NCBI GenBank assembly: GCA_963675285.2
Contig: CAXXGS010000001.1
Location: forward strand, 3,271,089-3,311,088
Source: an uncultured Rhodobium sp.
GTDB taxonomy: Bacteria > Pseudomonadota > Alphaproteobacteria > Rhizobiales > Rhodobiaceae
Length of the DNA: 40,000 nt
Reading direction: 5' to 3'
The position numbers and the translations under genes were made by a program. Each line of letters begins with the position of its first letter. Position 1 is the stretch's first letter. Under the pieces are notes generated by a model. It saw only the letters and a list, made by a program, of their open reading frames with translations. It made no database searches and was not told where the DNA came from. Shown piece after piece: positions 6,251 through 21,347 of this stretch.

Positions 6251-7717
6251 TCAGCGGGGCGCGCCCCAGGGGAGCGGCGCCTCGTCGAGGCCCCAGTAGA
6301 GGCTCTTTTGTTGCATGTATTGGCGGATGCCCTCGCGGCCCTTCTCTCGCCCGAGGCCGCTCTCCTTCATGCCGCCGAAGGGGGTCGAAATCGAGAACTG
6401 CTTGTAGGTGTTGATCCAGACCGTGCCGGCCTCAATTCGGCGAGCGAGCCGCCAGATCTTCCTGTAATCGCGCGACCAGAGGCCGGCGGCGAGGCCATAA
6501 ACACTGTCATTGGCTTCCGCGACGAGGTCGTCCTCGTCCTCGAATGGCAGGACGACGAGGACCGGGCCGAAGATCTCCTCCCGGCAGGCACGGGCGGAAT
6601 TCGGCAGACCCTCGATGATTGTTGGCAGGTAGTAGGCGCCTCTGTCGTATACGTCACCCTCAGGCCGCGCGCCGCCGCACAGGATTCGGCCGCCCTCCTG
6701 GCGCGCGAGGTCGACATAGGCTTCGACCGTTTCGCGATGACGGAAATGGACGAGCGGAGCGACCTGTGTCGCCGGGTCGGTGCCGGGACCGACCCTGAGT
6801 GCCTTCGTGCGGTCAACGAGGCGGGAGACGAAGTCGTCGTAGATCGCCCGCTCGACGAAGAGCCGAGAGCCGGCGATGCAGGACTGGCCGGTGGAGGAAA
6901 AGATGCCGAAGAGGACGCCGGCAAGCGCCTGTTCGATATCGGCGTCGGCGAAGACGATCGTCGGCGACTTGCCGCCGAGTTCGAGCGAGATCGGCATCAG
7001 CTTCTCGCCGGCGATCCGGGCGAGATGGCGGCCGGTCTTCGTGCCGCCGGTAAAAGAGATCTTCCTCACCTTTGGATGGCGGACAATGGCCTCGCCGGCG
7101 ACGGGTCCCGAGCCTGGCAGGACGGAAAGGAGCCCTTTCGGCAGCCCGGCCCTGTCGCAGATGTCGGCGAACTTCAGCGAGACGAGCGGCGTCCATTCCG
7201 CCGGCTTCAGCACGACGGCATTGCCCGCGGCGAGCGCCGGGGCGACCTTCTGGGCGTCGCTGGCGATCGGCGAATTCCATGGCGTGATCGCGCCGACGAC
7301 GCCGAGCGGCTCGTGGATGCTCATGGTCATGTAATCGCCGCGTGGCGGGGTGATCGCCTCCTCCATGGTCTCCAGCGCGGCGGCCATGTAGCGGAAGGTG
7401 CCGGCCGCGCTCATGGCAAGGGCCTTCGTTTCCGCCCGGCTCTTGCCGGTGTCGCGGGTCTGGAGTTCGGAGATTGCGTCGGCTTCCGCCTCGATGCCGT
7501 CGCCGATGCGGACAAGCATCCGGGCGCGCTCGTGAGGCTTCAGGTGCTCCCAGGCGGGATCGCGCATGGCCCGGTCGCCGGCTGCGACGGCGGCCTCGAC
7601 GTCGCTTTCGGAGGCGCCGGCGAATTCGGCGTTGAGAGAACCGTCGGCGGGATTGAGGGAGGCGATCGCGTCTCCCGTTCCCGGGCGCCAGACACCGCCG
7701 ATGAAGAGGTCGGTCAT
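6251..7717 (-). CDS. NAD(P)+-dependent aldehyde dehydrogenase (last gene of the long minus-strand operon)
   Basis: 488 aa. Motifs: ITPWNSP, LELGGKSPTIVFADADI (Glu) and FSSTGQSCIAGSRLFVE (Cys). The start lies 25 nt downstream of the preceding gene's stop. Confidence 0.9.
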   Translation of the reverse strand: MTDLFIGGVWRPGTGDAIASLNPADGSLNAEFAGASESDVEAAVAAGDRAMRDPAWEHLKPHERARMLVRIGDGIEAEADAISELQTRDTGKSRAETKALAMSAAGTFRYMAAALETMEEAITPPRGDYMTMSIHEPLGVVGAITPWNSPIASDAQKVAPALAAGNAVVLKPAEWTPLVSLKFADICDRAGLPKGLLSVLPGSGPVAGEAIVRHPKVRKISFTGGTKTGRHLARIAGEKLMPISLELGGKSPTIVFADADIEQALAGVLFGIFSSTGQSCIAGSRLFVERAIYDDFVSRLVDRTKALRVGPGTDPATQVAPLVHFRHRETVEAYVDLARQEGGRILCGGARPEGDVYDRGAYYLPTIIEGLPNSARACREEIFGPVLVVLPFEDEDDLVAEANDSVYGLAAGLWSRDYRKIWRLARRIEAGTVWINTYKQFSISTPFGGMKESGLGREKGREGIRQYMQQKSLYWGLDEAPLPWGAPR

Positions 7718-7742
7718 TGTGCGAGCCTTCGGTTGTTGGCTT

Positions 7743-8546
7743 TCAGATGATGACGATGGGGCCGGCGTTCGCCAGCGCCCGGCTCATGCTGAGCGCGGTC
7801 AGCATGGAAGTCCTGGGATTGGCGGGCGAGGGTCGGCCGGCAAGGCGGATGGAGAAGCTGCCGAAGGTGCCTTCGGCCTCGATCTCGTGGACGTTCTCGG
7901 TGACGGCCGGGTCGGCGACGAGTTCCACCTCGGTTGCCTCGAAGCCGAGGCCGGCGAGCGCGACGGTCGCTGCCACATTGGCATTCTTGGGGTAGAGCCG
8001 CGCGGCCTCACGGGCCGAGCCGGCGTAAAGGACGGCTTCTTCTTTCAACGCCAGGAGATCGCAGCATTCCCCGGCCGGCGAGCCGAGCCAGGCCCTCGGC
8101 GGCTTTCGCGACCGGTAACAGACGCGCGTGAGGTCGCCGAGGCTTGCCGCGGAGAGCGCATCAACCGCGCCGATGGCGCCGGCCGGCAGGATGAGCCGGG
8201 CATGGCCCGCTTCCGCGGCCGCGACGAGCTCACCGTAAAATCCGGCATCGGCCAGTGCGCCGACGGACATGGCGACGAGGTCGATGCCGGCGTTGAGAAC
8301 GGCGGGACCCAGGGTTTGAAGCGCATGATGGCCGGCGCATTCGCCGATGACGTCGGGCCGGGCCTCGATGAGCGCCTCCAGGGAGGTCACGAAGGGTACG
8401 CCCGGCGCGTCCGGCTGCGGCCGGTCGGGGCGTATGAGCACGCCGGAAAGGGTGCTGTCGCGGTTTTTGGCCTGGCCATTGCCGGCCAGGGTGTCGATGA
8501 CTGTCCTGGCGATACCGCCGTAGCCGATGAGGCCAAACCGGATCAT
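7743..8546 (-). CDS. Aspartate dehydrogenase-fold (NadX-like) NAD(P)-dependent dehydrogenase
   Basis: This is the C-terminal 267 aa of track ORF 7743-9656, taken from MIRFGLIGYGGIARTV (Rossmann GxGxxG/A). The segment ...ENVHEIEAEGTFGSFSIRLAGRPSPANPRTSMLTALS resembles the NadX C-terminal domain. The ATG overlaps the upstream stop (ATGA at 8543-8546). Confidence 0.7.
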   Translation of the reverse strand: MIRFGLIGYGGIARTVIDTLAGNGQAKNRDSTLSGVLIRPDRPQPDAPGVPFVTSLEALIEARPDVIGECAGHHALQTLGPAVLNAGIDLVAMSVGALADAGFYGELVAAAEAGHARLILPAGAIGAVDALSAASLGDLTRVCYRSRKPPRAWLGSPAGECCDLLALKEEAVLYAGSAREAARLYPKNANVAATVALAGLGFEATEVELVADPAVTENVHEIEAEGTFGSFSIRLAGRPSPANPRTSMLTALSMSRALANAGPIVII

Positions 8547-10222: not shown

Positions 10223-10997
10223 AGCGCGAGACGCCTCCCGATACTTCGACCATCGCGCCGGTGACGTAGGACGCCGCCGGGGAGGCGAGAAAGACTGCGG
10301 TACGAGCCGGTTCCTGTGGCTCTCCAAAACGGCCGAGCGGTACCTTGCGCGCCCGAGCCTCGTTGACAATCCAGTCGTCGAATGTCTGGTCCGGCGAAGC
10401 GTTCGCCTCGAAACGGCGGCGCCACTGGCCGGAGACGATGACGCCAAGGAGAATGGAGTTGACGCGAACGTCAGGTGCCAATTCCCGGCTCAGCGACTTG
10501 ACGAGGTTCTGGACGCCGGCGCGGGCCGCCGAGGTGCAGACCATGTGCGGCTCGGGCTGCCGGGCGAGGAGCGAATTGACGACGACAATGCTTGCGGCGG
10601 GCGACGCCTTCAGATCGTCGAGGAAGGCGCGCGTCGGGTGGATGACGCTGAAGAACTTCAGCGTCAGTTCCTCGCTCCAGTCGTCATCGCTTGTATCGGC
10701 GAAGGTGGAGACGCGGCCCTGGCCGGCGTTGTTGATCAGCATGTCGACCGAGCCGAAGCGCTCGACGATTGTATCGCGGAAGGCGGCGACGGCCGTCTTG
10801 TCGAGGACGTCGCAGGGAACGGCGAGGAGGTTTTCTCCGCCGTCGAGGTCGGCGACGGCCGCCTTGAGCCTGTCCTGATTACGGCCGCAGATGGCGACGC
10901 GCGCACCCTCGGCGAGAAAGATTCGCGCCGTCTCCAGCCCGATGCCCGATGTCCCGCCGGTGACGACCGCGACGCGGCCCTTGAGATCGAGATCCAT
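10215..10997 (-). CDS. SDR-family oxidoreductase with a non-canonical active-site segment
   Basis: 260 aa. It has the cofactor motif VTGGTSGIG and an NNAG motif. Where classical SDRs carry YxxxK, the sequence reads HMVCTSAARAGV (Thr155/Arg159 by my alignment). It overlaps the downstream gene by 8 nt. Confidence 0.8.
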   Translation of the reverse strand: MDLDLKGRVAVVTGGTSGIGLETARIFLAEGARVAICGRNQDRLKAAVADLDGGENLLAVPCDVLDKTAVAAFRDTIVERFGSVDMLINNAGQGRVSTFADTSDDDWSEELTLKFFSVIHPTRAFLDDLKASPAASIVVVNSLLARQPEPHMVCTSAARAGVQNLVKSLSRELAPDVRVNSILLGVIVSGQWRRRFEANASPDQTFDDWIVNEARARKVPLGRFGEPQEPARTAVFLASPAASYVTGAMVEVSGGVSRYA

Positions 10998-10999
10998 GG

Positions 11000-11899
11000 T
11001 CAGGCTCCCCCGCTTTCACCGGCGCCGTGCGTTCCGGCGTTATGCCGCTCGATCGCCGGGCGATAGCCGAGCCAGACGGCGATGGCGTCGGCGGCGGCGA
11101 GCACGCGGTCCTTCAGCGCGCCGTCGAGTTCGCTCATGTCGATGTAGCCCTCCGGGCTCGATATGCTGACGGCGGCGGCGATGCGGCCAGCGGCATCGCG
11201 CACGGGCGCAGCAATGGAGGCGACGCCGTGTTCGAAGGCGGAGCGGCTGACCACATAGCCGCGATTGCGGTCCGCCTCCACGGTGCGCAGGAGTTCCTCG
11301 ATGGTGCCGGGCGTCTTTTCGGTGAAGCGCTCCATCGTGATGCCGCTGTAAAGGTTGATGATGGCGGTATCGCTGAGATCGCCGAGGAGGAGCCGGCCCA
11401 TGGCGGTGGCGTGGGCCTGGAAACGGGTGCCGACGCTGACGTTGCTGGTGACCTGTGCCTGTGAGGCGACGCGGGCGACATAGACGATCTCGCGGCCTTC
11501 GCGGATCGTCAGATGAGCCGAGGCGCCGGTGTCGTCGCGCAGCGCCGTCAGATAGGGGCGGGCGACCTCCACCAGATCCATCGATCCGAGATATTCGAAG
11601 CCGAGAGTGAGGATGCGCGAGCCGAGGCAATAGGTCTTGCCGTTCTGCGAGCGCTTCAGGTAGCCGAGCCGTTCCAGCGTGAAGACGAGGCGGAAGACGG
11701 TCGAGCGCGGCAGGGCGAGGCGGCGGGTCAGTTCCGCCAGCGTCAACTCGGTGTTGTCACGGGCGAAGCATTCCAGGAGGCGCATGCCCCGCTCCAGTCC
11801 GGGAACCATGTAGCGGTCGTCATCAGGAGAGGATGCGGTGGGGCTCTCGCCGGACGGTGCGGTCGTCGTGTCGGGCGCGTCTGTCATCGTGTCGCTCAT
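11000..11899 (-). CDS. IclR family transcriptional regulator
   Basis: 299 aa, taken from the ATG at 11899 (MSDTMTDAPD...). The HTH is GLERGMRLLECFARDNTELTLAELTRRLALPRSTVFRLVFTLERLGYL, followed by an IclR effector domain (...GVASIAAPVRDAAGRIAAAVSISSP). The ATG overlaps the upstream stop (ATGA at 11896-11899). The gene ends 2 nt before the next start. Confidence 0.9.
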   Translation of the reverse strand: MSDTMTDAPDTTTAPSGESPTASSPDDDRYMVPGLERGMRLLECFARDNTELTLAELTRRLALPRSTVFRLVFTLERLGYLKRSQNGKTYCLGSRILTLGFEYLGSMDLVEVARPYLTALRDDTGASAHLTIREGREIVYVARVASQAQVTSNVSVGTRFQAHATAMGRLLLGDLSDTAIINLYSGITMERFTEKTPGTIEELLRTVEADRNRGYVVSRSAFEHGVASIAAPVRDAAGRIAAAVSISSPEGYIDMSELDGALKDRVLAAADAIAVWLGYRPAIERHNAGTHGAGESGGA

Positions 11900-12804
11900 C
11901 GTGTCTCTCCGGGGGTGTTCCCCGGTGCTCCTTGGGGAATGGCGGCGGAGAGGAAGGCGCGGACAGCCTCGTTGTAGCGCGCGGGCGCTTCGGCGTAGCT
12001 CGGGTGGCCAACCGGGCCGAGGTCGACATAGCACGCGCCGGGAAGTGCCCCCGCCACCATGCGGCAGCGTGCCTCGGGCGTGATCGGGTCGGCCGTTCCT
12101 GCCATGACCTGAACCGGCAGCGCGCGCGCCGCGCAGGCCGCTTCCATGTCGGCGAAGAGGTCGCCGCGCGCCAGGAGCCAGTTGGCCGCGCGGTAGCCGT
12201 CGGCGCGGATCTCTCCCATCATCCGGCGGGTGCGGGCGATGACGTCGGGGCCGGCGCCGGGGCCGCAGGTGCGCGCGGCGCGTTTGTCGGCGAGGCCCGC
12301 CGGGCCGAGTTCGTCGAGATCGCGGAGGCGGGCGGCGGCGCTTTCCGGCATCGGTCCGTCCGAATCGGCGGCAAAGCCGACGGCAGGGTGGGAAAGGATC
12401 AGCCGGCCGGTGCGATCCGGATGCCGGCGGGCGAAGGCCGCGGCAACGAGCGCGCCGAAGGAATGGGCGAGGATATCGGCCCTTTCGATGCCGAGCGCAT
12501 CGAGCGCGGCAGCGAGATGATCGGCGTAATCGGCGGGCGCTGGCCGCTCGATCGCCAGCGGATCGGAGCCGCCATAGCCCGGCGCGTCCCAGGCGATCAG
12601 CCGGAAGCGGTCGGCAAGGTTGGCGAGCTGATTCTCGAAGGAGCCGCTGTTGGAGCCGATGCCATGGAGGAGGATGAGCGCGGGGCCGGAACCCGTCTCG
12701 CGATAGGTGAGGGACCTTCCGTTAACGGAAATCATCTGGCGAGGGAAAAGCTCGGCCGTGGCCTGTCCGCTCGGGGATGTCATTGTCGGTATCGGCGTCG
12801 TCAT
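11896..12804 (-). CDS. Alpha/beta-fold hydrolase (meta-cleavage-product hydrolase-like)
   Basis: 302 aa. It has LILLHGIGSNSGSF (oxyanion region) and the nucleophile elbow AHSFGA. A strong RBS AGGAGG overlaps the upstream stop. Confidence 0.85.
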   Translation of the reverse strand: MTTPIPTMTSPSGQATAELFPRQMISVNGRSLTYRETGSGPALILLHGIGSNSGSFENQLANLADRFRLIAWDAPGYGGSDPLAIERPAPADYADHLAAALDALGIERADILAHSFGALVAAAFARRHPDRTGRLILSHPAVGFAADSDGPMPESAAARLRDLDELGPAGLADKRAARTCGPGAGPDVIARTRRMMGEIRADGYRAANWLLARGDLFADMEAACAARALPVQVMAGTADPITPEARCRMVAGALPGACYVDLGPVGHPSYAEAPARYNEAVRAFLSAAIPQGAPGNTPGETR

Positions 12805-12814
12805 CGCCCCCTCC

Positions 12815-13567
12815 TCATGCGAACACGAAGCCGCCGTTGACCGGCAGCAGTTGGCCGGTCACGAAGCCTGCGCCGGGGCCGAGGAGATAGACGACGGCGC
12901 CAACGACGTCCTGCGGGAACTGAGGACGGGGAATGGCGCGGCCGGTCTCGTAGAGGTCGTGGCGGGCCTTGGGCACGTATTCCGTTGCCTCGACGCGGAC
13001 GAGGCCAGGGGCGACGGCGTTGACGGTAACGCCGTCGGGGCCGAGTTCGCGGGCGAGTGAGCGGGTCATGGAAATGACCGCGCCCTTGCTTGCGACATAG
13101 GAGAGAAGGTTGGGCGCTCCCCACAGCGCGGTGTCGCTCGCCAGATTGACGATGCGGCCGCCGTCCGACGCCCGCAGAAGCGGTGCCAGTGCTTTCACCA
13201 TGAGCCAGGTTCCGCGCACGTTAACCTGCATCACGCGGTCCCAGGTCTCGATGTCGGTCTCCTCGAAGCTCTTGCCGCCGATGCCGGTGGCGATGGCGCC
13301 ATTGTTGACAAGCCCGTCGACGCGGCCGTAGCGCGCCGCGACGCGCTCGCCGAGGGCCTCGATGGAGGCGGGATCGGCGAGGTCGAGGGGCTCGAAGACC
13401 GCGTCGTGGCCGGCGGCGGCGAGGGCGTTGGCTGTCGCGCGGCCCCAGTCCTCCACCAGTTCGGCGACGACCACCCGGGCGCCGGCCTCGCAGCAGCCTT
13501 GCGCGAAGCCGCGGCCGAGCCCGCGGCCGGCTCCGGTGACGACGATGACGCGATCCTCAAGCGACAC
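12815..13567 (-). CDS. Classical SDR-family oxidoreductase
   Basis: 250 aa. Motifs: VTGAGRGLG, NNGA, and LASDTA...YVASKGAV (canonical Ser/YxxxK). Confidence 0.9.
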   Translation of the reverse strand: MSLEDRVIVVTGAGRGLGRGFAQGCCEAGARVVVAELVEDWGRATANALAAAGHDAVFEPLDLADPASIEALGERVAARYGRVDGLVNNGAIATGIGGKSFEETDIETWDRVMQVNVRGTWLMVKALAPLLRASDGGRIVNLASDTALWGAPNLLSYVASKGAVISMTRSLARELGPDGVTVNAVAPGLVRVEATEYVPKARHDLYETGRAIPRPQFPQDVVGAVVYLLGPGAGFVTGQLLPVNGGFVFA

Positions 13568-13576: not shown

Positions 13577-14173
13577 TCAGCTCGCCTTGCGGGCCGCTTC
13601 GGCGGCGATCTCGCGGCGGCGCTTGCGCAGTTCCATCAGCGGATGGCCTTCCGGGTAGTCCGGCACGACGGGTTTCGAGGCGCCGATGAGAACGCACATC
13701 AGCGCCTCTTCCTGGCCCTCGTTCCTGAGGCCGCGATAGACGCCGGGCGGCACGGAGATGATGTCGCGCGAGGACAGCACCGTCTCGCCCTTCTCGCCGT
13801 CGAGTTCGAACATCAGGCGCAGCTTTTCCGCCTTGAGCACGAAGAACACCTCCTCGGCATCGTAGTGGATGTGGAGGGGGCCCTCGCAGCCGGCCGGCAG
13901 GATCATGGTGGAGAAGGTGAAATGCTCGGCCGGCACGGTGTTGCCGTCGTCGGCGACGCCGGTGGCGCCGGTGCCGATGTAGCGGCATTGCGCACGGCGG
14001 TACTTCGGGTCGAGGTCGGCCTGGAACTTCAGCGCGTTCCAGTCGTACTTGCGGGTGTCGAAACGGGCGATGCGGGTTTCCATCCAGTCCATGAGGGACG
14101 TGTCGGCAGGCTTTTCCCACGTTTCGAAATAGTCGGCGGCGTGTTCCGCGATCTTTTCCCTGAGGCCGGTCAT
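13577..14173 (-). CDS. Cupin-domain protein
   Basis: 198 aa. Cupin motif 1 is GPLHIHYDAEEVFFVL (HxH...E). Motif 2 is VPPGVYRGLRNEG, with Arg at the usual His position. This suggests a 2-His-1-Glu metal site. Confidence 0.75.
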   Translation of the reverse strand: MTGLREKIAEHAADYFETWEKPADTSLMDWMETRIARFDTRKYDWNALKFQADLDPKYRRAQCRYIGTGATGVADDGNTVPAEHFTFSTMILPAGCEGPLHIHYDAEEVFFVLKAEKLRLMFELDGEKGETVLSSRDIISVPPGVYRGLRNEGQEEALMCVLIGASKPVVPDYPEGHPLMELRKRRREIAAEAARKAS

Positions 14174-14202: not shown

Positions 14203-14997
14203 TCAGGTGCCGGCGTGCGAGCGGGCCGGAAGGTAGTGCAGCACCCGGCGCTCGATGAGCACGATGATGCCGTAGAGGACGATGCCGATCAGCGTCAGCA
14301 TGATGATGGTGACGAAGACCATGGCGGTGTTGCCGGCGCCTTCGCCGAAGGACAGCAGGTAACCGAGGCCGATGTTGCCGCCGACGAGTTCGCCGACGAC
14401 GACGCCGATGACGGCGAGCGTCGCGGCGATCCGGAGGCCGGCGAAGAACGGCGGCATGGCGGCGGGGAACTCGATCTTCCAGAAGACCTGGAAGCGGTTG
14501 GCGGTGAAGGAACGTGCGAGCCGGGTGATGTCCTGGTCAACGGCGCGGACGGCGCCGAGAACGTTGATCATGACCGGAAAGAACACGATCAGCACGGCAA
14601 CAAGGATCTTGGGGTAGACGGTGTAACCGAACCAGATGATGAAGAGCGGCGCGAAGGCGACCTTCGGAGCGATCTGCAGCGCCAGGATATAGGGCGACAA
14701 CAGGAATTCCGCCGTCGGCGACATGCCGAGAACGAAGCCGACGACCATGCCGAGGAGGACGCCGAGGATGAGGCCGGCGACGACCTGCAGGGCGGTGATG
14801 GCGGTGTGGTAGAGGAGATGCTCGCGGGCGAGCATGTAGAGGAACTCGCTCCACACCTGGGTCGCCGGCGGGATGATGAAAGGCGGGATGCCGAAGAGCG
14901 CGGGCCCCCATTGCCAGCAGGCGAGGAAGGCGGCGAGCAGCAGCACGCTGGCGGCGATCAGGCGCTGGGTGTTCATGGGAAGTGCGAGGCTGTCCAT
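14203..14997 (-). CDS. ABC transporter permease (NitT/TauT family)
   Basis: 264 aa and multi-pass hydrophobic. The EAA-like loop is ...LARSFTANRFQVFWKIEFPAAMPPFFAGLRIA... Confidence 0.9.
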   Translation of the reverse strand: MDSLALPMNTQRLIAASVLLLAAFLACWQWGPALFGIPPFIIPPATQVWSEFLYMLAREHLLYHTAITALQVVAGLILGVLLGMVVGFVLGMSPTAEFLLSPYILALQIAPKVAFAPLFIIWFGYTVYPKILVAVLIVFFPVMINVLGAVRAVDQDITRLARSFTANRFQVFWKIEFPAAMPPFFAGLRIAATLAVIGVVVGELVGGNIGLGYLLSFGEGAGNTAMVFVTIIMLTLIGIVLYGIIVLIERRVLHYLPARSHAGT

Positions 14998-15057
14998 CCG
15001 GCTTCTCCTTGATCGATCCGGGTTTCTGACCGGTCCGCTTCCTTGAGTGGTCTAGTC

Positions 15058-15082
15058 GGCGGCGGGGTCGGTTCCCGCCGCC
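15058..15082 (-). other. Intercistronic GC-rich stem-loop between the binding-protein and permease genes
   Basis: GGCGGCGGG-gtcggtt-CCCGCCGCC is a perfect 9-bp stem with no U-tract on either strand. It sits within the 108-nt SBP-permease spacer. Confidence 0.5.
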
Positions 15083-15105
15083 CGGATCGTTGTTCCCGAT
15101 CGGGC

Positions 15106-16092
15106 CTATTCGACGAAGGCGTTGGTGTAGAGGTCGTCGATCGGTGTCTTCCGCCGGATGATGCCCTGGTCGTAGTAGAAGTCCTGCAGAGCTTGAAGCC
15201 GTTCGCGGTCCATGGCGCCGAGGGTTTCCTGGCCGCTATAGACGGCCTCGGTGAACATCTTGAAGATCGCCGCCATGTCCTTTTCCTTGCCGGCGTGCTG
15301 GGGTACGGCCTTTACGTAGTCGGCGGCGGCGGCGTCCGGATCGTCCATGATCGCCTTGAGGCCTTTCAGCGTGGCGCGGACGATCTTCCTAACGAGCTCG
15401 GGGTTATTCTCGATGGTGTCGTCGGCGACGATGATCGCCTGCGCCATGCTCTTGAAATAGTCGTCGGTTCTCAGGACCTTGATGCCCTTCATGCCGGACT
15501 GCTGGGCCAGATAGGTCCAGTCGGGAACGGACGCCATGGCGTCGGCCTCACCGGCGACGAAGAGCTTCCAGACGTTGACCGGGCCGACGGCCTGGGCATT
15601 GACGTCGTCCTTGGTCAGCCCGACGGAGGCAAGGACGCCGAGGAGCGCGTAGAAGGTCGTGTCCTGATAGGCCAGCGCGGTGATGGTCTTGCCCTTCAGG
15701 TCGGCGGGGGTCTCGATGCCCTTTTCGGTGTTGACGACGAGCTGCATCAGCGAATGGCCGCCGAGGACGGCGACGGCCTTCACGGGGATGCCGTTGGTGC
15801 GCACCAGGATCGGCGTATCGCCGATGGCGCCGCCGACGACGGCATTGCCGGCGCCGACCTGCTTGGCGACGTCGACGCCGCCCTTGGCGACCTGGAAGGT
15901 GACGTTGAGACCCTCCTCGGCGTAGTAGCCGCGTGCCTTGGCGAGCATCCACGGCGAGAAGGCGGGCAGGAACGCCGGCGCCGGCAGAAGGTAGGTTACG
16001 TCTTCAGCGGCGCGGGCTTCCGTTGCGGGAAGGCTCGCAAGCGCCGCTCCGGCAGCAACGCCGGCCACGACAAGGCTCTTCAGGAATTTCAT
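15106..16092 (-). CDS. ABC transporter periplasmic substrate-binding protein (NMT1/THI5-like, NitT/TauT family)
   Basis: 328 aa, taken from the ATG at 16092 (MKFLKSLVVAGVAAGAALASLPATEARA, a signal peptide). The remaining 241 codons of track ORF 15106-16815 are Arg/Pro-rich read-through. Confidence 0.9.
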   Translation of the reverse strand: MKFLKSLVVAGVAAGAALASLPATEARAAEDVTYLLPAPAFLPAFSPWMLAKARGYYAEEGLNVTFQVAKGGVDVAKQVGAGNAVVGGAIGDTPILVRTNGIPVKAVAVLGGHSLMQLVVNTEKGIETPADLKGKTITALAYQDTTFYALLGVLASVGLTKDDVNAQAVGPVNVWKLFVAGEADAMASVPDWTYLAQQSGMKGIKVLRTDDYFKSMAQAIIVADDTIENNPELVRKIVRATLKGLKAIMDDPDAAAADYVKAVPQHAGKEKDMAAIFKMFTEAVYSGQETLGAMDRERLQALQDFYYDQGIIRRKTPIDDLYTNAFVE

Positions 16093-16184
16093 CGCAGTTC
16101 CCCTTTTGTCGATGCGACTTTCTCGTTCGGTCTGTGTCCGTCTTCTTGGTTTTCTTTGCGTGATCGGTTGTTGGATCCTGTCCC

Positions 16185-16973
16185 TCAGGCCGCCTCGGTT
16201 TCGCCGATATGGAGCAGGTCCATGAGCTGGCCGACATAGGGGCCGACGCAGGCGTCCTTGCGGCGCTGCATCGGATTGTCCCGGTCGGGGATCTCGATGA
16301 GGATTTCCTCGATGATGCGGCCCGGGCGGTGGCTCATGACAAGGACGCGGTCGGACAGCGCGATCGCCTCGACGAGATCGTGGGTGATGAAGAGCGCGGT
16401 CTTGCCGGTCTCGGCGAGCGTGCGGCCGAGGTTCTGCTGCAGAACCATCTTGGTCTGCGCGTCGAGGGCGGAGAACGGCTCGTCCATGAGCAGGACGGAG
16501 GGGTTCACCGCGAGCGTGCGGGCGAGGGCCGCGCGCTGACGCATGCCACCGGACAGTTCGTGCGGGTAGCTGTCGAAAAAGCCGTCGAGGTGGCAGCGGC
16601 GGAGAAGGTCCTCGGCCTGCTCCTTGTGCGCGGCGTCGTTCTTGCCCTGGATTTCCAGGCCGAGCTCGACGTTCTTGCGGATCGACCGCCAGGGCAGCAG
16701 CAGGTCCTTCTGCAGCATGAAGGCGACGTGGGAGTTCGGCCTGGTGACCAGCTCGCCGTCGACGTGCACCTCGCCGGAGGTGACGGGATCGAGCCCGGCG
16801 CCGAGGTTGAGACAAGTGCTCTTGCCACAGCCGGACGGGCCGATGATGGAGACGATCTCGCCCTCCTTGATGGAGAAGCTGACATCCTCGATCGCGGTTA
16901 CCGGCGTTGCGCCCTTGCGCTTGGTGCCGAACACCTTGCTGACGTTGGTGAATTCCAGAACCGTGTTGGTCAT
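16185..16973 (-). CDS. ABC transporter ATP-binding protein
   Basis: 262 aa, taken from the ATG at 16973 (MTNTVLEFTNVSKVF). Walker A is GPSGCGKST, the signature is LSGGMRQR and Walker B is LLMDEPFSALD. Confidence 0.9.
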   Translation of the reverse strand: MTNTVLEFTNVSKVFGTKRKGATPVTAIEDVSFSIKEGEIVSIIGPSGCGKSTCLNLGAGLDPVTSGEVHVDGELVTRPNSHVAFMLQKDLLLPWRSIRKNVELGLEIQGKNDAAHKEQAEDLLRRCHLDGFFDSYPHELSGGMRQRAALARTLAVNPSVLLMDEPFSALDAQTKMVLQQNLGRTLAETGKTALFITHDLVEAIALSDRVLVMSHRPGRIIEEILIEIPDRDNPMQRRKDACVGPYVGQLMDLLHIGETEAA

Positions 16974-17026
16974 GAGCCGTCCTTCGTCATGCGTCTTTTC
17001 CTCGCGGCCGCCGCCGCCATCGCGTC

Positions 17027-17986
17027 TCATCGCTTGTCGGTGAGGAATTTGCCGTCGACGCCGGCGGGGCCGTGCTTCTGGCGCCGCTTGTCGCCGTCGA
17101 GGCCGCCGTCGATCGCCCATTCGGCAAAGACCGTGGGCCCCGGCTCGAAGTCGCGCGGTTGCCAGGCGTCGGTCAGATAGTCTTCGTCGGCGTAATATTC
17201 GATTAGCGCGCCGGCGGGGTTCTTGAAGTACCAGAAGTAGGCGGAGGAAACGGGATGCCGGCCGGGGCCGAGCTGCGTTTCCCAGCCGAGGCGGGACATC
17301 GCCAGCCCGCCGCCGAAGACCTCGTGAATGTCGCGCACGGTGAAGGCGACGTGATTGAGCCCGCGCCGGCCGGCCGGCGTCTGCAGGAGGAAGAGGTCGT
17401 GGTGTCCTCCCTCGTCGGCGCATCGCATGAAGTGGCCGCGGTCGGGGTAGCGGTCGGAGAGGCGGAAGCCGAGCGCCTCGTAGAAGGCCGTCGTCTCGTC
17501 CAGCGCGTCGGTGAAGAACACCACGTGACCGACTTCGATCGGCGTCGCCCGCTCATAGACCGGCGAGGGTGCGTCGACGCGGGCCTGGTCTCCCCAGACG
17601 TTCGACGGGCTTCCCTTAACGTCAAGTTGGCGCTTGCGGCTGACCCTGAGGCCGATTCCGACGCCGTTCGGATCGACGGCGTGGAGCGTGCTGTCGTCTT
17701 CCCTGAAGGCGGGTGCCCGCGCAAGGACCGGGCGATATCGGTCAAGATCGGCGTTGGAGCCGACGCCCCAGACGACCTCGCGTAGCGTCGGTCCGTCCTC
17801 GACGGCGGGGGCAAGGCTCTCATCGTCAGGGAGGCGGACGGCGACCTCGCAGCCGTTCAGCGTCGAGAAGCGGAGGCCGGAGGCGTTCTCCTCCTCCAGC
17901 GTCAGGCCCCAGTCGAGGAAGAACCTGCGGCAGGTTGCCAGATCCTCCGCGCCGTAGGTGATCCTGTCGATACCGAGAACGCTCAT
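17027..17986 (-). CDS. Two-domain VOC-superfamily protein (type I extradiol dioxygenase-like)
   Basis: 319 aa. The candidate metal triad sits in the second domain, in the spacing seen in BphC-type enzymes: GHVVFF, LNHVAFTV, LIEYYADE. Confidence 0.75.
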   Translation of the reverse strand: MSVLGIDRITYGAEDLATCRRFFLDWGLTLEEENASGLRFSTLNGCEVAVRLPDDESLAPAVEDGPTLREVVWGVGSNADLDRYRPVLARAPAFREDDSTLHAVDPNGVGIGLRVSRKRQLDVKGSPSNVWGDQARVDAPSPVYERATPIEVGHVVFFTDALDETTAFYEALGFRLSDRYPDRGHFMRCADEGGHHDLFLLQTPAGRRGLNHVAFTVRDIHEVFGGGLAMSRLGWETQLGPGRHPVSSAYFWYFKNPAGALIEYYADEDYLTDAWQPRDFEPGPTVFAEWAIDGGLDGDKRRQKHGPAGVDGKFLTDKR

Positions 17987-17998
17987 GGCAATGTCTCC

Positions 17999-18985
17999 CT
18001 AGAGGTCCAGGACCAGTTTCTCGCCCTTGCAGCGCGAGACGCAGATCATCATGGTGGCGTTCGCGTCCTGCTCGGCGCGGCTGAGGACGGAATCGCGATG
18101 GTCGGGTATCCCGTCGATCACGGCGGTTTCGCAGGTGCCGCAGATACCGTCCTCGCAGGAGGACTGCACGGCGACGCCGGCCTCGGCGAGGACGGCGAGG
18201 ATGCTGCGGTCGGCGGGCACTTCCAGGGTGCGCTTGCTGCGGGCGAGTTCGACGGTGAAGGCGGTGTCCGCGCCGTCCGTCTCGATCACCTTTGGGGTGA
18301 AATATTCGACGTGGACGCGCGTTTCGTCGAAGCCGGCGGCCGCCTCCTCGAAGGTGGCCAGCATGCCGGCCGGGCCGCAACAATAGAAATGCGTGCCCTC
18401 GGGATGGCCGCTCAGCATGGCGGTGACATTCGCCGGCCGTCCGGCCTCGGCGTCGACGTGGAGGGCGACGGGGATGCCGAGCGCCTCCATCTCGTGAAGA
18501 AAGGCGGCGCGGTCGCGGTCGCGGACAGCGTAGTGGAACTCGAACGGCCGGCCGCGCTCTTTCAGCCGGCGCGCCATGCACAGCATCGGTGTGATGCCGA
18601 TGCCACCGGCAATGAACACGACCTTTTCGGCATCCTCGACGAGGGGGAAATGGTTGCGCGGCGCTTCGATGTCGATGAGGTCGCCGACACGCAGTTTTGT
18701 GTGCACGTAGGACGAACCGCCGCGGCTCTTGGCGTCGTGGCCGACGCCGACGACATAGCGGTCGGTGCGTTCCGGCGCGCCGGCGAGCGAATAGCTGCGT
18801 GTGATGCCGTTCGGCAGGTGCAGGTCGACATGGGCGCCGGGTTCGAAGGCAGGCAGCGCCTCGCCGTTCGGGCGGCGCAGGTCCACCGCGAGAACGCCTT
18901 CCGCAGCAAACGTCATGGCATGGACGCGGACCTGGATCGGCCCGTCGCCGGGCGACGTGGTGCCGGGAGATGTGGTGCCGGTCAT
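17999..18985 (-). CDS. PDR/VanB-type oxygenase reductase (flavin + NAD(P)H + plant-type [2Fe-2S])
   Basis: 328 aa, taken from the ATG at 18985 (ATGA overlap with the RidA stop). Motifs: flavin RSYSL, NAD GGIGITPM, and C-terminal CEDGICGTCET...ICVSRC, the ferredoxin Cys set. Confidence 0.85.
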   Translation of the reverse strand: MTGTTSPGTTSPGDGPIQVRVHAMTFAAEGVLAVDLRRPNGEALPAFEPGAHVDLHLPNGITRSYSLAGAPERTDRYVVGVGHDAKSRGGSSYVHTKLRVGDLIDIEAPRNHFPLVEDAEKVVFIAGGIGITPMLCMARRLKERGRPFEFHYAVRDRDRAAFLHEMEALGIPVALHVDAEAGRPANVTAMLSGHPEGTHFYCCGPAGMLATFEEAAAGFDETRVHVEYFTPKVIETDGADTAFTVELARSKRTLEVPADRSILAVLAEAGVAVQSSCEDGICGTCETAVIDGIPDHRDSVLSRAEQDANATMMICVSRCKGEKLVLDL

Positions 18986-19404
18986 GCGGATGCTCCCGAA
19001 GCGTGGAGGTCGACGTCGAGATTGGCGTAGGCGTCGACCTCGACGAGGAGGCCGGGAAAGGCGAAACCGGACACCTCGACGAGGGTTGAGCAGGGATAGA
19101 TATCGCGGAAGGCGGCCTTTCTCGCGGCATTGACGCCGGCCTTGCGGGCGATGTCCGTGACATAGATGACGAGGCGGTAGATGTTGCCGTCGTGGCCGCC
19201 CGCCGCTTTCAATTGCGCCTTGATGCGGGCAAAGACGGCGAGCGTCTGCGCCTCCATGTCGTCGCCGCCGACCGCCGCGCCGTCGTGGCCGCGCGCGGTA
19301 ACGCCGGAAAACACCACCTCGCGGCCGACAACGAGACACGTCGACCAGGAGGCGCCGGCGGGCTCGGGCACGTCCGGCGTCGCGATCTTTTTCACCGGTA
19401 TCAC
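18982..19404 (-). CDS. RidA/YjgF-family protein (imine/enamine deaminase fold)
   Basis: 140 aa, if started at the GTG (complement of 19402-19404), which lies 7 nt after AGGAG. No in-frame ATG is available. The sequence VIPVKKIATPDVPEPAGASWSTCLVVGREVVFSGVTA...YPCSTLVEVSGFAFPGLLVEVDAYA is typical of the family. Confidence 0.75.
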   Translation of the reverse strand: MIPVKKIATPDVPEPAGASWSTCLVVGREVVFSGVTARGHDGAAVGGDDMEAQTLAVFARIKAQLKAAGGHDGNIYRLVIYVTDIARKAGVNAARKAAFRDIYPCSTLVEVSGFAFPGLLVEVDAYANLDVDLHASGASA

Positions 19405-19415
19405 GGCATTGCTCC

Positions 19416-20468
19416 TCAGGAGGCCGCGATTTCGGCGGCGAGCTGTTCCTGGGCGAGCCCTTTCAGGCGCCGGCGCAGGCGGACGAGGCCCATGTCGTGC
19501 TGGTAGAGGATCTCGCGGTCCCGGGCGTTCGGATCCATGTCTTCCAGGAGCGCGCGGTCCTGCTCCAGGACATGCCAGTGGCGGCCCTCGAGGCGGTTCT
19601 TGTAGAGGAAGCGCCAGGTGTCGCGTTGCCAGCCGGCGACCTTGCGACAACGCCAGTGGAAGATCGCCGCCATCGTCGGGCTGATCGGCGTGTACATGCC
19701 GATGATGTGGAAATTGCCGCCCGGGCCGCCGGTCTTGGGGTAGGGAATTTCGAGACGCAGCCAGTGGATGCCGGTCTCGCCCCATTCGGTCCAGTCGAAG
19801 TTGACGTTGCGCTGGCCTTCCTTCTCGAAGATGAAGCCGGTTTCGGTCTCGCGCACGCCGAATTTCGCCGTGGTGTCGCCGAAATTCATCGAATGGGACT
19901 GCTTGTGGAGGAAGGTCCCATGCATGGGATCCATGACGTTATCGTAAACGTAGCGGTAGTCGCCGGCCCATTCCGCGTAGCACAGGAATGAACTGAATTC
20001 GGCCGACTCCATTTCCTCGGGAAGCGTGAAAGGTGCCGGATCCGGGTTCGGCGTCTTGTCGTCGCCGACGTAAGCAAAGATCGTCTCGTTGCGCTCAACC
20101 ACGGGAAAGGTGCGCACCGCGCGCGCGCCTTCCAGCTTGCAGCCGGGGCTTCCCGGCACCGAGACGGCGATGCCGTCCTCGTTGACCTGGACGCCGTGGT
20201 AGCCGCAGGCGATGCGGTCGTCCATGACGATGCCGCGCGACAGCGGCGCGCCTCGATGGGGACAGAAGTCCTCCAGGATATTCACCGTGCCGTCGAGCTT
20301 GCGCCACAACACCATGCGGTAGCCGAGGCGGTTGAGCGAGACCGGCTTGCCGGTCACGAAGGTCGACGGACAGATCGGCCACCACATGTTCCTGAGGCCG
20401 ATCGTGAGGCGTTCCTCGATGGCGTCCTCGGTGACGGCCTTTCTGGCCTCGGTGTTGACATCCAGCAT
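19416..20468 (-). CDS. Rieske [2Fe-2S] non-haem-iron oxygenase, alpha subunit only (class IA-like)
   Basis: 350 aa. The Rieske motif is CPHRGAPLSRGIVMDDRIACGYHG. The mononuclear iron motif is DNVMDPMHGTFLH (D-x2-H-x4-H). No beta-subunit or ferredoxin gene is adjacent. Confidence 0.9.
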   Translation of the reverse strand: MLDVNTEARKAVTEDAIEERLTIGLRNMWWPICPSTFVTGKPVSLNRLGYRMVLWRKLDGTVNILEDFCPHRGAPLSRGIVMDDRIACGYHGVQVNEDGIAVSVPGSPGCKLEGARAVRTFPVVERNETIFAYVGDDKTPNPDPAPFTLPEEMESAEFSSFLCYAEWAGDYRYVYDNVMDPMHGTFLHKQSHSMNFGDTTAKFGVRETETGFIFEKEGQRNVNFDWTEWGETGIHWLRLEIPYPKTGGPGGNFHIIGMYTPISPTMAAIFHWRCRKVAGWQRDTWRFLYKNRLEGRHWHVLEQDRALLEDMDPNARDREILYQHDMGLVRLRRRLKGLAQEQLAAEIAAS

Positions 20469-20497
20469 GTCTCTTCCCCCTTACGGTCGACGGCGCC

Positions 20498-20725
20498 TCA
20501 GGCGCCCAGCCGCCTGATTTCCTCGATGTAGAGTTCCGCGGTCCACACCTGTCCGCGCGGTGCCGGCACGGCCTGTTCGTTGAGGCTGGCGACGAGGCCG
20601 TCGAGCGTGTCGATGCCGGCCGCGAAGCTCTTCTCAATGGCGTCGCCGAGAAGGTTCTCGTAGTCGGACGGCTCGGCGTCGCGGGTCTGGTGGACTTCCA
20701 GGTACTGGCTGTGCGGCTTCATCAT
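20498..20725 (-). CDS. Small protein (75 aa) with a recombinase-like helix-turn-helix C-terminus; function unknown
   Basis: MMKPHSQYLEVHQTRDAEPSDYENLLGDAIEKSFAAGIDTLDGLVASLNEQAVPAPRGQVWTAELYIEEIRRLGA. The ATG overlaps the upstream stop (ATGATGA at 20719-20725). The gene ends 29 nt before the Rieske gene. It contains no Cys. Confidence 0.55.
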   Translation of the reverse strand: MMKPHSQYLEVHQTRDAEPSDYENLLGDAIEKSFAAGIDTLDGLVASLNEQAVPAPRGQVWTAELYIEEIRRLGA

Positions 20726-21054
20726 TTTCCCCCTTTGCGGACACGCTCGCGGATCATGTCGCGAACGGGCACGAAGTCGTAGGTCGGGTAGCATTCGGTG
20801 CGGAATACACCCCAGGCGGAGCGTTCCAGTTCCACATTGACGACGTTGAGCTTGGAGGGAGGCAGGCGGAGCGTGACGATCTGGCCGAGGCCCATGGCGA
20901 CGGTCCAGGAGACGATTTCGACGCCCTCGGGCGGGAAGCGTTCCCACCAGTCGGCGTCCTTCAGCCTGGTTTGAACCGCGTCGAGGTTGTTCGACTGATC
21001 GTGCTTCAGGAACACGGTCAGGAGCATCGTCTCCTGGTCTTGCGTGTCCATCAT
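20722..21054 (-). CDS. Small protein (110 aa), first ORF of the operon; function unknown (small alpha+beta protein, possibly DUF3303-like)
   Basis: MMDTQDQETMLLTVFLKHDQSNNLDAVQTRLKDADWWERFPPEGVEIVSWTVAMGLGQIVTLRLPPSKLNVVNVELERSAWGVFRTECYPTYDFVPVRDMIRERVRKGGK. High third-position GC in this frame supports coding. The upstream 84 codons of the track ORF run through the AT-rich promoter and were discarded. Confidence 0.55.
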   Translation of the reverse strand: MMDTQDQETMLLTVFLKHDQSNNLDAVQTRLKDADWWERFPPEGVEIVSWTVAMGLGQIVTLRLPPSKLNVVNVELERSAWGVFRTECYPTYDFVPVRDMIRERVRKGGK

Positions 21055-21085
21055 TGCCGTTCCCGTGTGCTCTGTATTTGTGCTT

Positions 21086-21109
21086 ACTTGTTTTATATAT
21101 GAAACAAGT
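21086..21109. promoter_or_regulatory. 24-bp near-perfect palindrome ACTTGTTTtATATATgAAACAAGT, a candidate operator overlapping the operon promoter
   Basis: Read directly. It has perfect 8-bp arms, a palindromic ATATAT core and one mismatched pair. It lies 32-55 nt upstream of the ATG at 21054, inside the only AT-rich stretch of the region. On the minus strand, TTGTTC-N17-TCATAT/TATATA is a possible -35/-10 pair. Confidence 0.45.
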
Positions 21110-21347
21110 GTTCTTATATGAACAATATTACGCAGCCTGTGCGGATCTGTAAAGGTCGATTCGCGTGCGTTGGTGCGAATCGAGGGAAAAGGCGGCATCG
21201 GCTCCGGCCCGTTTCCTTCCCTCACGACGGAAAAACCGCGCCTGGGAAAGTCGGATGCGCTCCGTCGATGCAGTGACGAAGCCCCGGCATGCATTAGCGT
21301 GAACATCGGAATTTTATGCCGCTACCGGACGCCTGCTGCGGACGGCG

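Follow-up and report, generated by a model that had tools for sequence, protein, structure and literature searches.

The window analysed here is the whole of a 40,000-nucleotide (nt) stretch of DNA from an uncultured Rhodobium sp. (contig CAXXGS010000001.1 of assembly GCA_963675285.2), and it carries on its minus strand 17 open reading frames (ORFs) that form a real catabolic operon. The ORFs (g1 to g17 in the order of transcription; Table 1) occupy positions 6251–21054 with no internal stops, all start with ATG or GTG, and nearly all are preceded by a purine-rich Shine–Dalgarno-like stretch. From g1 to g17 the gaps between them are −4, 29, 11, −4, 12, 53, 92, 108, 29, 9, 10, −4, 2, −8, −4 and 25 nt, the largest (108 nt) agreeing with the limit of 110 nt reported in an initial annotation of the window; the four ATGA stop/start overlaps (8543–8546, 11896–11899, 18982–18985 and 20722–20725) and the 8-nt overlap of g14 and g15 (ATGCCTAA, 10215–10222) all lie where that annotation had placed them. 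The same gene set recurs across phyla, more than chance would give, and its description as one co-directional catabolic cluster is supported. We consider it reasonably probable that the 17 genes constitute a single self-contained operon that imports an aromatic or heteroaromatic organic anion and degrades it to central metabolites.

The reading frames are supported by a GC content at third codon positions of 0.75–0.89 across the genes (the window as a whole has about 67% GC), and public gene calls are identical to the cupin (198 amino acids (aa)), aspartate dehydrogenase (AspDH; 267 aa) and Rieske oxygenase (350 aa) products described here. The string had been taken to extend over 6251–21130, of which the 6251 end stands; the first gene begins at 21054, a start that we set because its homologues are 106–112 aa long, and position 21130 holds no start codon but the first base of a −10 hexamer. 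Each of the protein families named initially was recovered with Pfam and NCBIfam. The two genes at the head of the string, g1 and g2, had been left without a description. Oceanibacterium hippocampi is the closest named relative (80–89% amino-acid identity), and a megablast search of the whole region against plasmids returned no close relative.

A single promoter at about 21125–21153 would drive transcription. The AT-rich region noticed earlier at the head of the string is an island of 75% AT at 21070–21129 (about 33% elsewhere) with one σ70-like site, and a CTTTACA box is found at a similar position 5′ of most of the orthologous operons examined. Two adjacent palindromes come directly after the −10 hexamer, and related GTTTC–AT-rich–GAAAC palindromes lie just downstream of the promoter in Zhengella loci, several Beijerinckiaceae, other alphaproteobacterial metagenome-assembled genomes and one further such genome (L003). 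The palindromes, lying over the transcription start, are probably the operator of the operon-encoded IclR-family protein g13, which would repress its own operon from both of them. The nearest subfamily of g13 is PcaR/PcaU/PobR (TIGR02431; 202 bits against a cut-off of 285); g13 is a member of the IclR family that lies outside that subfamily. An Rfam scan found no riboswitch or other RNA element, and terminator-like sites and hairpins were no more frequent than in shuffled sequence.

A profile search identified relatives of the cupin g10 in no fewer than 564 species genomes, and 80 loci were fetched with 10-kb flanks; presence counts refer to the 61 loci with full flanks (Table 1), and ORF clustering to 82 loci. 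The cupin is the most conserved member of the cluster, its invariant residues including H101, H103, E107 and E108. Some of the absences counted, those of the aldehyde dehydrogenase (ALDH) gene included, may reflect the 10-kb flank limit. Genes for the cupin, the hydrolase, the short-chain dehydrogenase/reductase (SDR), the thiamine-diphosphate (ThDP) enzyme, AspDH, the IclR regulator, ALDH, the Rieske oxygenase and the extradiol dioxygenase travel together through Alpha-, Beta- and Gammaproteobacteria and Streptomyces; Streptomyces chartreusis has ALDH, AspDH, hydrolase, cupin, both SDRs, the ThDP enzyme, a VanB-type reductase, an HTH_62 protein and the Rieske oxygenase. The initial annotation had allowed that the oxygenase, ring-cleavage and hydrolase genes might not be conserved together with the ThDP, AspDH and ALDH genes; in the related loci they occur together. 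Annotated copies lie on plasmid pNK83 of Caballeronia sp. NK8, on pSA2 of Novosphingobium resinovorum SA1 and in the chromosome of Klebsiella pneumoniae, between tkt and speB, and a Vibrio nigripulchritudo plasmid carries the lower-pathway and vicinal-oxygen-chelate (VOC) genes only. With copies on plasmids and chromids in several genera, the cluster is horizontally mobile.

Table 1 Features of the operon in window coordinates, with the number of related loci (of the 61 with full flanks) in which each gene was counted
Feature	Coordinates	Strand	Evidence	Loci (of 61)
σ70-like promoter, TTTACA-17-TAATAT	21125..21153	-	Sole σ70-like match on both strands, 5800–21500	
Two adjacent palindromes, putative IclR operator	21086..21124	-	TGTTCATATAAGAACA (21124–21109); ACTTGTTTCATATATAAAACAAGT (21109–21086), 24-nt inverted repeat	
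g1, 110-aa protein	20722..21054	-	Predicted ferredoxin-like β-α-β-β-α-β fold; no significant Pfam match, no NCBIfam match	
g2, 75-aa HTH_62 protein	20498..20725	-	Pfam PF20552, 97 bits	
g3, Rieske non-haem-iron oxygenase, α subunit only	19416..20468	-	Pfam Rieske and VanA_C domains	50
g4, YjgF/Rid-family protein	18982..19404	-	Pfam; orthologue of Pseudomonas aeruginosa PA3499 (PDB 2IG8)	10
g5, VanB/phthalate-dioxygenase-reductase-type reductase	17999..18985	-	Pfam NAD_binding_1 and C-terminal plant-type 2Fe-2S Fer2	
g6, two-domain VOC protein, type I extradiol dioxygenase	17027..17986	-	Near-canonical extradiol signature GRH-x7-WY-x2-NPxG-x3-E	43 (g6-type VOC)
g7, ATP-binding cassette (ABC) ATPase, NitT/TauT-like	16185..16973	-	Pfam and NCBIfam	
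g8, NMT1/THI5-like periplasmic binding protein	15106..16092	-	Pfam NMT1, 132 bits; PDB relatives remote	
g9, ABC permease	14203..14997	-	Pfam BPD_transp_1; nearest NCBIfam SaoP, SsuC and TauC, all below cut-off	
g10, single-domain metal cupin, HxHx3EE	13577..14173	-	Pfam Cupin_2; 60–83% identity	61
g11, classical SDR	12815..13567	-	Pfam and NCBIfam, generic matches only	59 (tblastn; some cross-matches of ≤35%)
g12, α/β-hydrolase, enol-lactonase/esterase type	11896..12804	-	Best full-length model PcaD, 109 bits	59
g13, IclR-family regulator	11000..11899	-	Pfam HTH_IclR and IclR_C	54
g14, SDR, NCBIfam PRK07062	10215..10997	-	394 bits (cut-off 266)	60
g15, ThDP enzyme, PRK07064	8543..10222	-	840 bits (cut-off 495)	59
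g16, L-aspartate dehydrogenase	7743..8546	-	Passes three NCBIfam AspDH cut-offs	56
g17, NAD(P)-dependent ALDH	6251..7717	-	Pfam Aldedh, 557 bits	47

Around the shared genes the loci differ in how electrons and substrate would be supplied. The electron supply alternates between g1, the Rid-like protein and a VanB-type reductase, on the one hand, and a Rieske ferredoxin with an HcaD-like FAD reductase, on the other. A second type of VOC protein is present in 12 of the 82 clustered loci, and a flavin monooxygenase resembling salicylate and 3-hydroxybenzoate hydroxylases occurs in 21, several of which have no Rieske gene in range. An arylsulfatase gene stands between the genes of a tripartite ATP-independent periplasmic (TRAP) transporter and the catabolic genes in ten loci (L013, L033, L066 and seven more), mostly marine, and in N. 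resinovorum (L083 1–2755) a GH3 glycosidase and a TonB-dependent receptor are encoded directly upstream of the ThDP gene. That these genes abut or sit within the clusters suggests that phenolic forms of the substrate are used as glycosylated or sulfated conjugates.

The oxygenase module begins with g3 and g5, an α-only Rieske/VanA_C oxygenase with a single reductase, as defines a two-component class IA system. None of the 17 ORFs matched a ring-hydroxylating β-subunit family, the predicted fold of g1 being ferredoxin-like and not NTF2-like. Solved enzymes are distant from g3 (at most 78 bits, to DdmC, SxtT, CarAa and OxoO), and its family has 2,835 members at E ≤ 1e-20, of which the best 120 are 65–90% identical and come from Alpha- and Betaproteobacteria. 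The electron-transfer class is not fixed for this family, because orthologous oxygenases elsewhere use a Rieske ferredoxin and an FAD reductase; in most other genomes this pair, with an HcaD-like reductase, replaces g5. The SDR g11 is a probable dihydrodiol dehydrogenase. Its orthologues (52–72% identity) are found mainly in loci with a Rieske gene, most of the Rieske-less loci giving cross-matches of at most 35% only; it adjoins the Rieske gene in the ferredoxin-type clusters, and it falls in no named dihydrodiol-dehydrogenase family.

Two small proteins are tied to the oxygenase. The family of g1, with proteins of 108–110 aa, has 1,814 members at E ≤ 0.001, those listed being 75–95% identical across Alpha- and Betaproteobacteria; its AlphaFold2 model (pLDDT 78) is ferredoxin-like with no specific fold match in the PDB, and one UniRef entry labels the family ‘muconolactone isomerase domain-containing’. 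The gene is confined to clusters with a VanB-type reductase, where it takes the slot held in other clusters by the Rieske ferredoxin gene. The gene for the HTH_62 (‘recombinase-like HTH’) protein, represented here by g2, is normally found directly 5′ of the Rieske α gene, as in Caballeronia, Novosphingobium, Acinetobacter, Klebsiella (an unnamed 102-aa ORF) and Streptomyces; copies lie at L001 22892–23200, L083 9857–10177 and L085 16691–16894. Because this position is kept from Proteobacteria to Streptomyces, it suggests that the HTH_62 protein may have an oxygenase-associated role rather than one in DNA binding.

The third small protein, g4, seems to be without RidA's catalytic arginine and is accessory. 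Its top PDB match, 2IG8, scores 116 bits and the runner-up 52 bits, while against TIGR00004 it scores 41 bits (cut-off 106). Where g4 reads PCSTLVEV, PA3499 reads PASTLVEV; the RidA motif at that position we take to be PARSAVEV, with Arg105 as the catalytic residue of Escherichia coli RidA. The arginine is missing there in all eight of the 11 g4 orthologues in which the motif was located. The initial annotation had seen in the Rid fold a hint of an aminomuconate route; with no catalytic arginine seen at that motif and orthologues in 10 of the 61 loci, we rejected that argument. The structure of PA3499 itself is given as ‘to be published’, and no function is assigned to the protein.

The importer (g7–g9) had been assigned initially to a family that usually handles sulfonates, pyrimidines or nitrate. 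The binding protein g8 scores below the sulfonate-binder cut-offs (107 against 163.5 bits for SsuA_fam TIGR01728 and 48 against 304 bits for TIGR01729) and belongs only to the wider NMT1 superfamily, and the importer is replaceable: elsewhere its place is taken by a major facilitator superfamily (MFS) protein of the anion:cation symporter (ACS) type, a TRAP system or a tripartite tricarboxylate transporter (TTT), often with a porin. Because the ABC importer swaps with MFS, TRAP and TTT systems, the transporters point to an organic anion and not to a sulfonate or pyrimidine.

Extradiol ring cleavage by g6 is a well-supported prediction. A relaxed form of the extradiol signature (the PROSITE pattern) is present in all 43 g6 orthologues and in all 12 VOC proteins of the second type; the best-matching families of g6 (HpaD, catechol 2,3-dioxygenase and homoprotocatechuate 2,3-dioxygenase) are all far below cut-off. 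An oxygenase and an extradiol enzyme followed by an α/β-hydrolase had suggested the logic of the Bph/Tod meta-cleavage routes, and at the level of superfamilies, and in the extradiol signature, the likeness stands. It fails at the hydrolase. Over its full length g12 matches 3-oxoadipate enol-lactonase (PcaD) and esterases; the BphD and HsaD models align with its N-terminal part only, and g12 has an AHSFGA elbow and a GHP motif, its orthologues showing GHSLGA or AHSFGA. Meta-cleavage-product (MCP) hydrolases (BphD, MhpC, HsaD), which are C–C hydrolases, typically carry a GNSxGG elbow and a His–Trp pair at the catalytic histidine; neither GNSxGG nor GHW occurs in any of the 53 g12 orthologues. 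By its sequence g12 is not an MCP hydrolase and, because of these motifs, we rejected a canonical hydrolytic meta pathway of the Bph/Mhp type. Nor is there a module of 2-hydroxypentadienoate hydratase, 4-hydroxy-2-oxovalerate aldolase and acylating aldehyde dehydrogenase in the 17 genes or the annotated flanks of the window, or among the labelled or annotated recurrent families of the 82 related loci.

The genes that remain would make up a different lower pathway. The AlphaFold2 fold of the cupin g10 returns generic matches to MncA, quercetinase and oxalate decarboxylase. Where both are called, the gene for the SDR g14 lies directly upstream of the ThDP gene or one gene away. The ThDP enzyme g15 is a probable 2-oxo-acid decarboxylase, its nearest functionally named family being 5-guanidino-2-oxopentanoate decarboxylase (284 bits; PDB relatives at most 153 bits). 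Sulfoacetaldehyde chemistry of the Xsc type was rejected for g15, that family lying outside its best 25 family matches. The ALDH g17 lies at about the same distance from BADH, HpaE and StyD, and reaches the cut-off of none of these families. Among solved structures, the Rieske oxygenase, VOC protein, binding protein, cupin, ThDP enzyme, AspDH and hydrolase, and the TRAP binding protein of a related locus, had remote relatives only; g4, with PA3499, was the one exception in these searches.

The enzyme that says most about the chemistry is g16. It scores 282 bits against NF009828 (cut-off 177) and 260 bits against the equivalog NF009827 (cut-off 226), and it keeps the catalytic histidine, its NVH aligning with NIH193 of the Thermotoga maritima enzyme (His193). 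In the Klebsiella cluster the AspDH sequence starts with MKKVMLIGY and finishes with CRELA, in agreement with the primers with which the assayed K. pneumoniae enzyme (KpnAspDH) was cloned. KpnAspDH aminates oxaloacetate with a kcat of about 70 per second and Km values of 1.35 mM for oxaloacetate and 53 mM for NH4+, and its relative activity on pyruvate, 2-oxoglutarate, glutamate or alanine is at most 5.5%. Because this orthologue has been assayed, we take g16, by homology, to be a genuine L-aspartate/oxaloacetate enzyme. As we read it, the Km of 53 mM for NH4+ argues against ammonia assimilation and fits the deamination of aspartate or the reduction of preformed iminoaspartate. In two loci, those of an Oceanobacter sp. 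and Acinetobacter sp. ANC 4169, the next gene after the ThDP gene on the same strand encodes an aspartate ammonia-lyase (PRK12273, 726 bits; L051 16288–17775 and L067 16270–17703). Because of the properties of AspDH and the appended aspartase, L-aspartate or iminoaspartate is the best-supported pathway intermediate or product, and the substrate likely contains nitrogen. The initial annotation had proposed a nitrogen-containing substrate from the Rid fold; the proposal is plausible, and its basis is AspDH (56 of 61 loci) and the aspartase, not RidA. In K. pneumoniae strain 176 the AspDH gene is frameshifted (L002 9475–10220); the record is labelled ‘plasmid’ yet spans 5.37 Mb with the chromosomal genes pgk, tkt, speA and speB.

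Counterparts in well-studied bacteria place the operon among genes that already have locus tags. Two Pseudomonas clusters (L069 and L078) encode, in order, the ATPase, the substrate-binding protein, the permease, an SDR, the cupin, the hydrolase, IclR, an SDR, the ThDP enzyme, AspDH, ALDH, the VOC protein, g1, HTH_62, the Rieske oxygenase, the Rid-like protein and the reductase, 17 in total. Laid on this order, PA3514 down to PA3498 of P. aeruginosa PAO1 agree with each published label that we found, namely PA3512 (ABC transporter component), PA3508 (regulator), PA3507 (enoyl-ACP-reductase-like SDR), PA3502 (no known function), PA3499 (YjgF family) and PA3498 (probable oxidoreductase). On gene order and labels, the cluster corresponds to PA3498–PA3514. 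PA3505 we take to be the AspDH gene. In Acinetobacter baumannii the same genes are A1S_0953 (cupin), A1S_0954 (hydrolase), A1S_0956 (AspDH), A1S_0957 (ALDH) and A1S_0958 (ThDP enzyme); A1S_0953–A1S_0958 equal ABUW_2942–2946, with the oxygenase genes upstream. The Klebsiella and Acinetobacter clusters have a near-identical order but use a Rieske ferredoxin, an FAD reductase and an MFS transporter, and they are without g1 and the Rid-like protein. Cluster genes of A. baumannii are mildly induced by mucin. Literature searches with the locus tags of P. aeruginosa and A. baumannii and with combinations of the enzymes (kynurenate genes were not covered) turned up no assigned substrate or function, which agrees with the initial view that the gene set matches no known pathway.

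We propose the following scheme, in which uptake, dihydroxylation and extradiol cleavage are drawn from family assignment and co-occurrence and the later steps we infer. An organic anion would be taken up by the NitT/TauT-like ABC system, and its ring would be dihydroxylated by the α-only Rieske oxygenase g3, fed by the VanB-type reductase g5 and paired with the SDR g11. In many genomes the salicylate-hydroxylase-like flavin monooxygenase would bring a mono-hydroxylated substrate to the same diol, and in some an arylsulfatase or GH3 enzyme could release the phenol from conjugates. The Fe(II) extradiol dioxygenase g6 would then open the ring, after which the lactonase/esterase-type hydrolase g12, the cupin g10 and the SDR g14 may rework the fission product. 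The ThDP decarboxylase g15 and the ALDH g17 would shorten a 2-oxo-acid arm by one carbon, and a nitrogen-bearing C4 part would leave as (imino)aspartate or L-aspartate, which g16 would link to oxaloacetate.

Several observations weigh against this scheme. PAO1 carries its counterpart as “two contiguous uncharacterized operons”, according to a 2025 paper in which the region is also described as missing or rare in other P. aeruginosa isolates. Because of that description, and because module order varies between genomes, a single transcript in the window is not proven. AspDH alone in the cluster has a characterised close relative, and because no other enzyme has one, the steps after ring cleavage are all inferred; to the cupin in particular, no function can be assigned from its fold matches. 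The specificity of KpnAspDH itself was assayed on few alternative substrates only. The AspDH fold can serve ring-fission enamines, because the human homologue, with a two-residue shift of its catalytic histidine, reduces 2-aminomuconate and is inactive on aspartate, as a 2026 preprint shows (bioRxiv 10.64898/2026.06.05.730449). In A. baumannii AB5075, the addition of vitamin B12 raised ABUW_2942, 2943 and 2946 four- to five-fold along with ssu, tau and sfn, which are genes of sulfur starvation (PMC12892962), a co-induction that the scheme does not explain.

As to the substrate, our leading guess is kynurenate, which suits the constraints unusually well; xanthurenate would enter by way of the flavin monooxygenase. 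The guess is tentative and comes from chemical reasoning only. In Pseudomonas the classical kynurenate pathway starts with an oxygenase forming the 7,8-dihydrodiol, a dihydrodiol dehydrogenase that is NAD-dependent and an 8,8a-extradiol dioxygenase, and g3, g11 and g6 are of these three enzyme types. Its ring-fission product, 5-(3-carboxy-3-oxopropenyl)-4,6-dihydroxypicolinate, has a 2-oxo-acid arm that suits the ThDP enzyme g15 and ALDH, and the N1–C2(COOH)–C3–C4 part of its hetero-ring is the skeleton of aspartate, which suits AspDH or aspartase. The non-MCP character of g12 is consistent with kynurenate, because the ‘6-oxo’ group of the product is a lactam and offers no ketone to a C–C hydrolase. 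In the lower pathway the fission product would yield L-aspartate, derived from the pyridone ring, together with a C5/C6 dicarboxylate made by the ThDP decarboxylase and ALDH. Xanthurenate is 8-hydroxykynurenate, and its 8-O-sulfate and 8-O-glucoside conjugates are known; it would reach the same 7,8-diol by the flavin monooxygenase, and its conjugates would occupy the sulfatase and the GH3 enzyme. Against the match, the end products reported in classical studies of kynurenate with extracts were glutamate, alanine and acetate, not aspartate. We know of no genes or sequences attached to EC 1.14.99.2, 1.3.1.18 and 1.13.11.10. That g3 (with g5), g11 and g6 are these three enzymes, in which case the cluster would supply the long-missing genes for the kynurenate/xanthurenate (‘quinoline’) branch of bacterial tryptophan catabolism, is an identification that we put forward as doubtful.

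An improbable alternative is a nitrogen-free precursor, such as benzoate, salicylate or a hydroxybenzoate, that is converted to 2,3-dihydroxybenzoate, protocatechuate or a similar diol and degraded by a lactone route: extradiol cleavage would be followed by oxidation of a hemiacetal by the SDR, hydrolysis of the lactone by g12 and removal of the oxalo group by the ThDP enzyme and ALDH, with AspDH only linking oxaloacetate to aspartate. Such a route suits the PcaD/enol-lactonase-like g12, the SDR gene adjoining the ThDP gene, a flavin monooxygenase nearest to 3-hydroxybenzoate and salicylate hydroxylases and a regulator nearest to the PcaR/PobR subfamily, but it leaves unaccounted for both the dedicated AspDH of 56 of the 61 loci and the operon-appended aspartase, and the Km of 53 mM for NH4+, as read above, makes amination of oxaloacetate in vivo unlikely.

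A β-aryl-alanine (phenylalanine, m-tyrosine, tyrosine, DOPA or possibly tyrosine O-sulfate), broken down along an amino version of the hca/mhp pathway of E. coli, is more improbable still. Here, after dihydroxylation and opening of the ring, ring carbon C1 with the alanyl side chain would be released as L-aspartate, and the cupin, SDR, ThDP enzyme and ALDH would process the remaining 2-oxo acid. This release needs a C–C hydrolase, the motifs of which occur in 0 of 53 g12 orthologues; the transporters are of organic-anion and not amino-acid types, and these organisms presumably already own standard routes for phenylalanine and tyrosine. What such a substrate does account for is AspDH with aspartase, the sulfatase, and the alternation of Rieske oxygenase plus SDR with the flavin monooxygenase, as with Hca and MhpA.

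We hold an aminobenzoate or aminophenol (anthranilate or 3-hydroxyanthranilate) to be quite unlikely. On that account g16 would be an imine reductase or dehydrogenase acting on an amino-muconate-like product, for which human ASPDH gives a precedent of the AspDH fold on a ring-fission enamine; the cluster has an ALDH and a Rid-family protein, and the carbon/nitrogen skeleton of an ortho-aminobenzoate would map onto aspartate. The position of the catalytic histidine in g16 is nevertheless the prokaryotic one, the Klebsiella enzyme works well on aspartate and oxaloacetate, the Rid protein is accessory and appears to be without the catalytic arginine, and the known aminophenol-cleaving dioxygenases are of the LigB or cupin type and not VOC proteins. 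Least probable, and very much so, is that functionally separate units (for example a transporter that scavenges sulfonates or sulfate esters, an aromatic oxygenase module and an amino-acid-shortening module) merely lie side by side, or that the cluster acquires sulfur from aryl sulfonates or sulfates: a NitT/TauT-family ABC system, an arylsulfatase in ten loci, the co-induction with ssu/tau/sfn in A. baumannii, the two operons described in PAO1 and a module order that differs among genomes speak for this, but the oxygenase, VOC and lower-pathway genes stay linked in 61 loci across phyla while the transporter changes, the stop/start overlaps are tight with one promoter-like site, and no desulfonating enzyme family is among the Pfam and NCBIfam matches.

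The operon that we favour, which would degrade an imported aromatic anion with aspartate as a product, shares parts with several described systems. Like hca/mhp and bph/tod, it has a Rieske oxygenase, a dehydrogenase, a type I extradiol dioxygenase and an α/β-hydrolase, and in hca/mhp the flavin monooxygenase MhpA is a second entry for the phenolic form, as in the related loci here. In contrast to both, it has no oxygenase β subunit, its SDR belongs to no named dihydrodiol-dehydrogenase family, and a cupin, SDR, ThDP enzyme, AspDH and ALDH replace the hydratase, aldolase and acylating dehydrogenase. In the arginine transaminase pathway (AruH, AruI, KauB) a 2-oxo-acid ThDP decarboxylase works with an ALDH; this route and Ehrlich-type routes share the logic of a 2-oxo acid decarboxylated by a ThDP enzyme to an aldehyde that an ALDH oxidises, and AruI belongs to the named family nearest to g15. 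The differences are that g15 falls in its own equivalog, PRK07064, and that a dehydrogenase of the AspDH fold stands in place of the transaminase. Human ASPDH likewise puts the AspDH fold into ring-fission catabolism, conserving nitrogen as an α-amino dicarboxylate, whereas g16 has the canonical histidine and its Klebsiella orthologue acts on aspartate and oxaloacetate. Protocatechuate 4,5-cleavage (lig), in which an extradiol dioxygenase, a hemiacetal dehydrogenase, a lactone hydrolase and an isomerase lead to oxaloacetate, may be a parallel, but the VOC protein is not LigAB, the SDR is not LigC, the α/β-hydrolase is not the amidohydrolase LigI, and there is no hydratase or aldolase here.

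What sets the cluster apart is an undescribed lower pathway, the first catabolic context for a bacterial AspDH and two orphan small proteins tied to the oxygenase. It is a large, strongly conserved catabolic unit in several hundred species at least, three major hospital pathogens (K. pneumoniae, A. baumannii and P. aeruginosa, strain PAO1) among them. Since it is accessory in P. aeruginosa but is found in A. baumannii and K. pneumoniae, the cluster may also matter for adaptation to host niches. Knowing its substrate would close a gap in the cycling of carbon and nitrogen from aromatics or tryptophan, would explain why a highly active aspartate dehydrogenase is kept in a catabolic operon of mesophiles, would define a lower pathway in which cupin, SDR, ThDP and ALDH chemistry replaces the hydratase and aldolase, and would show what the HTH_62 family and the g1 family of about 1,800 members do. 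If kynurenate were the substrate, bacterial aspartate dehydrogenase would have its first physiological role outside NAD synthesis.

The genes on either side of the operon are unrelated to it. Upstream lie genes for a glutathione S-transferase (GST), IalB, RlmN and other housekeeping genes. The GST gene (21348–21998, same strand, just upstream of the promoter) was considered as part of the unit and rejected, having no match in the 82 related loci; a GST is also annotated near the Vibrio cluster, probably by coincidence. Downstream, at 2442–6133 on the plus strand and convergent with the operon, are genes for an AsnC-type regulator, a second ALDH and a class III aminotransferase, and beyond them, at 994–2382 on the minus strand, a GntR-aminotransferase (MocR-type) regulator; neither the convergent unit nor this regulator is conserved beside the cluster in other genomes. 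The genes at 2442–6133 probably form a unit for the utilisation of ω-amino acids.

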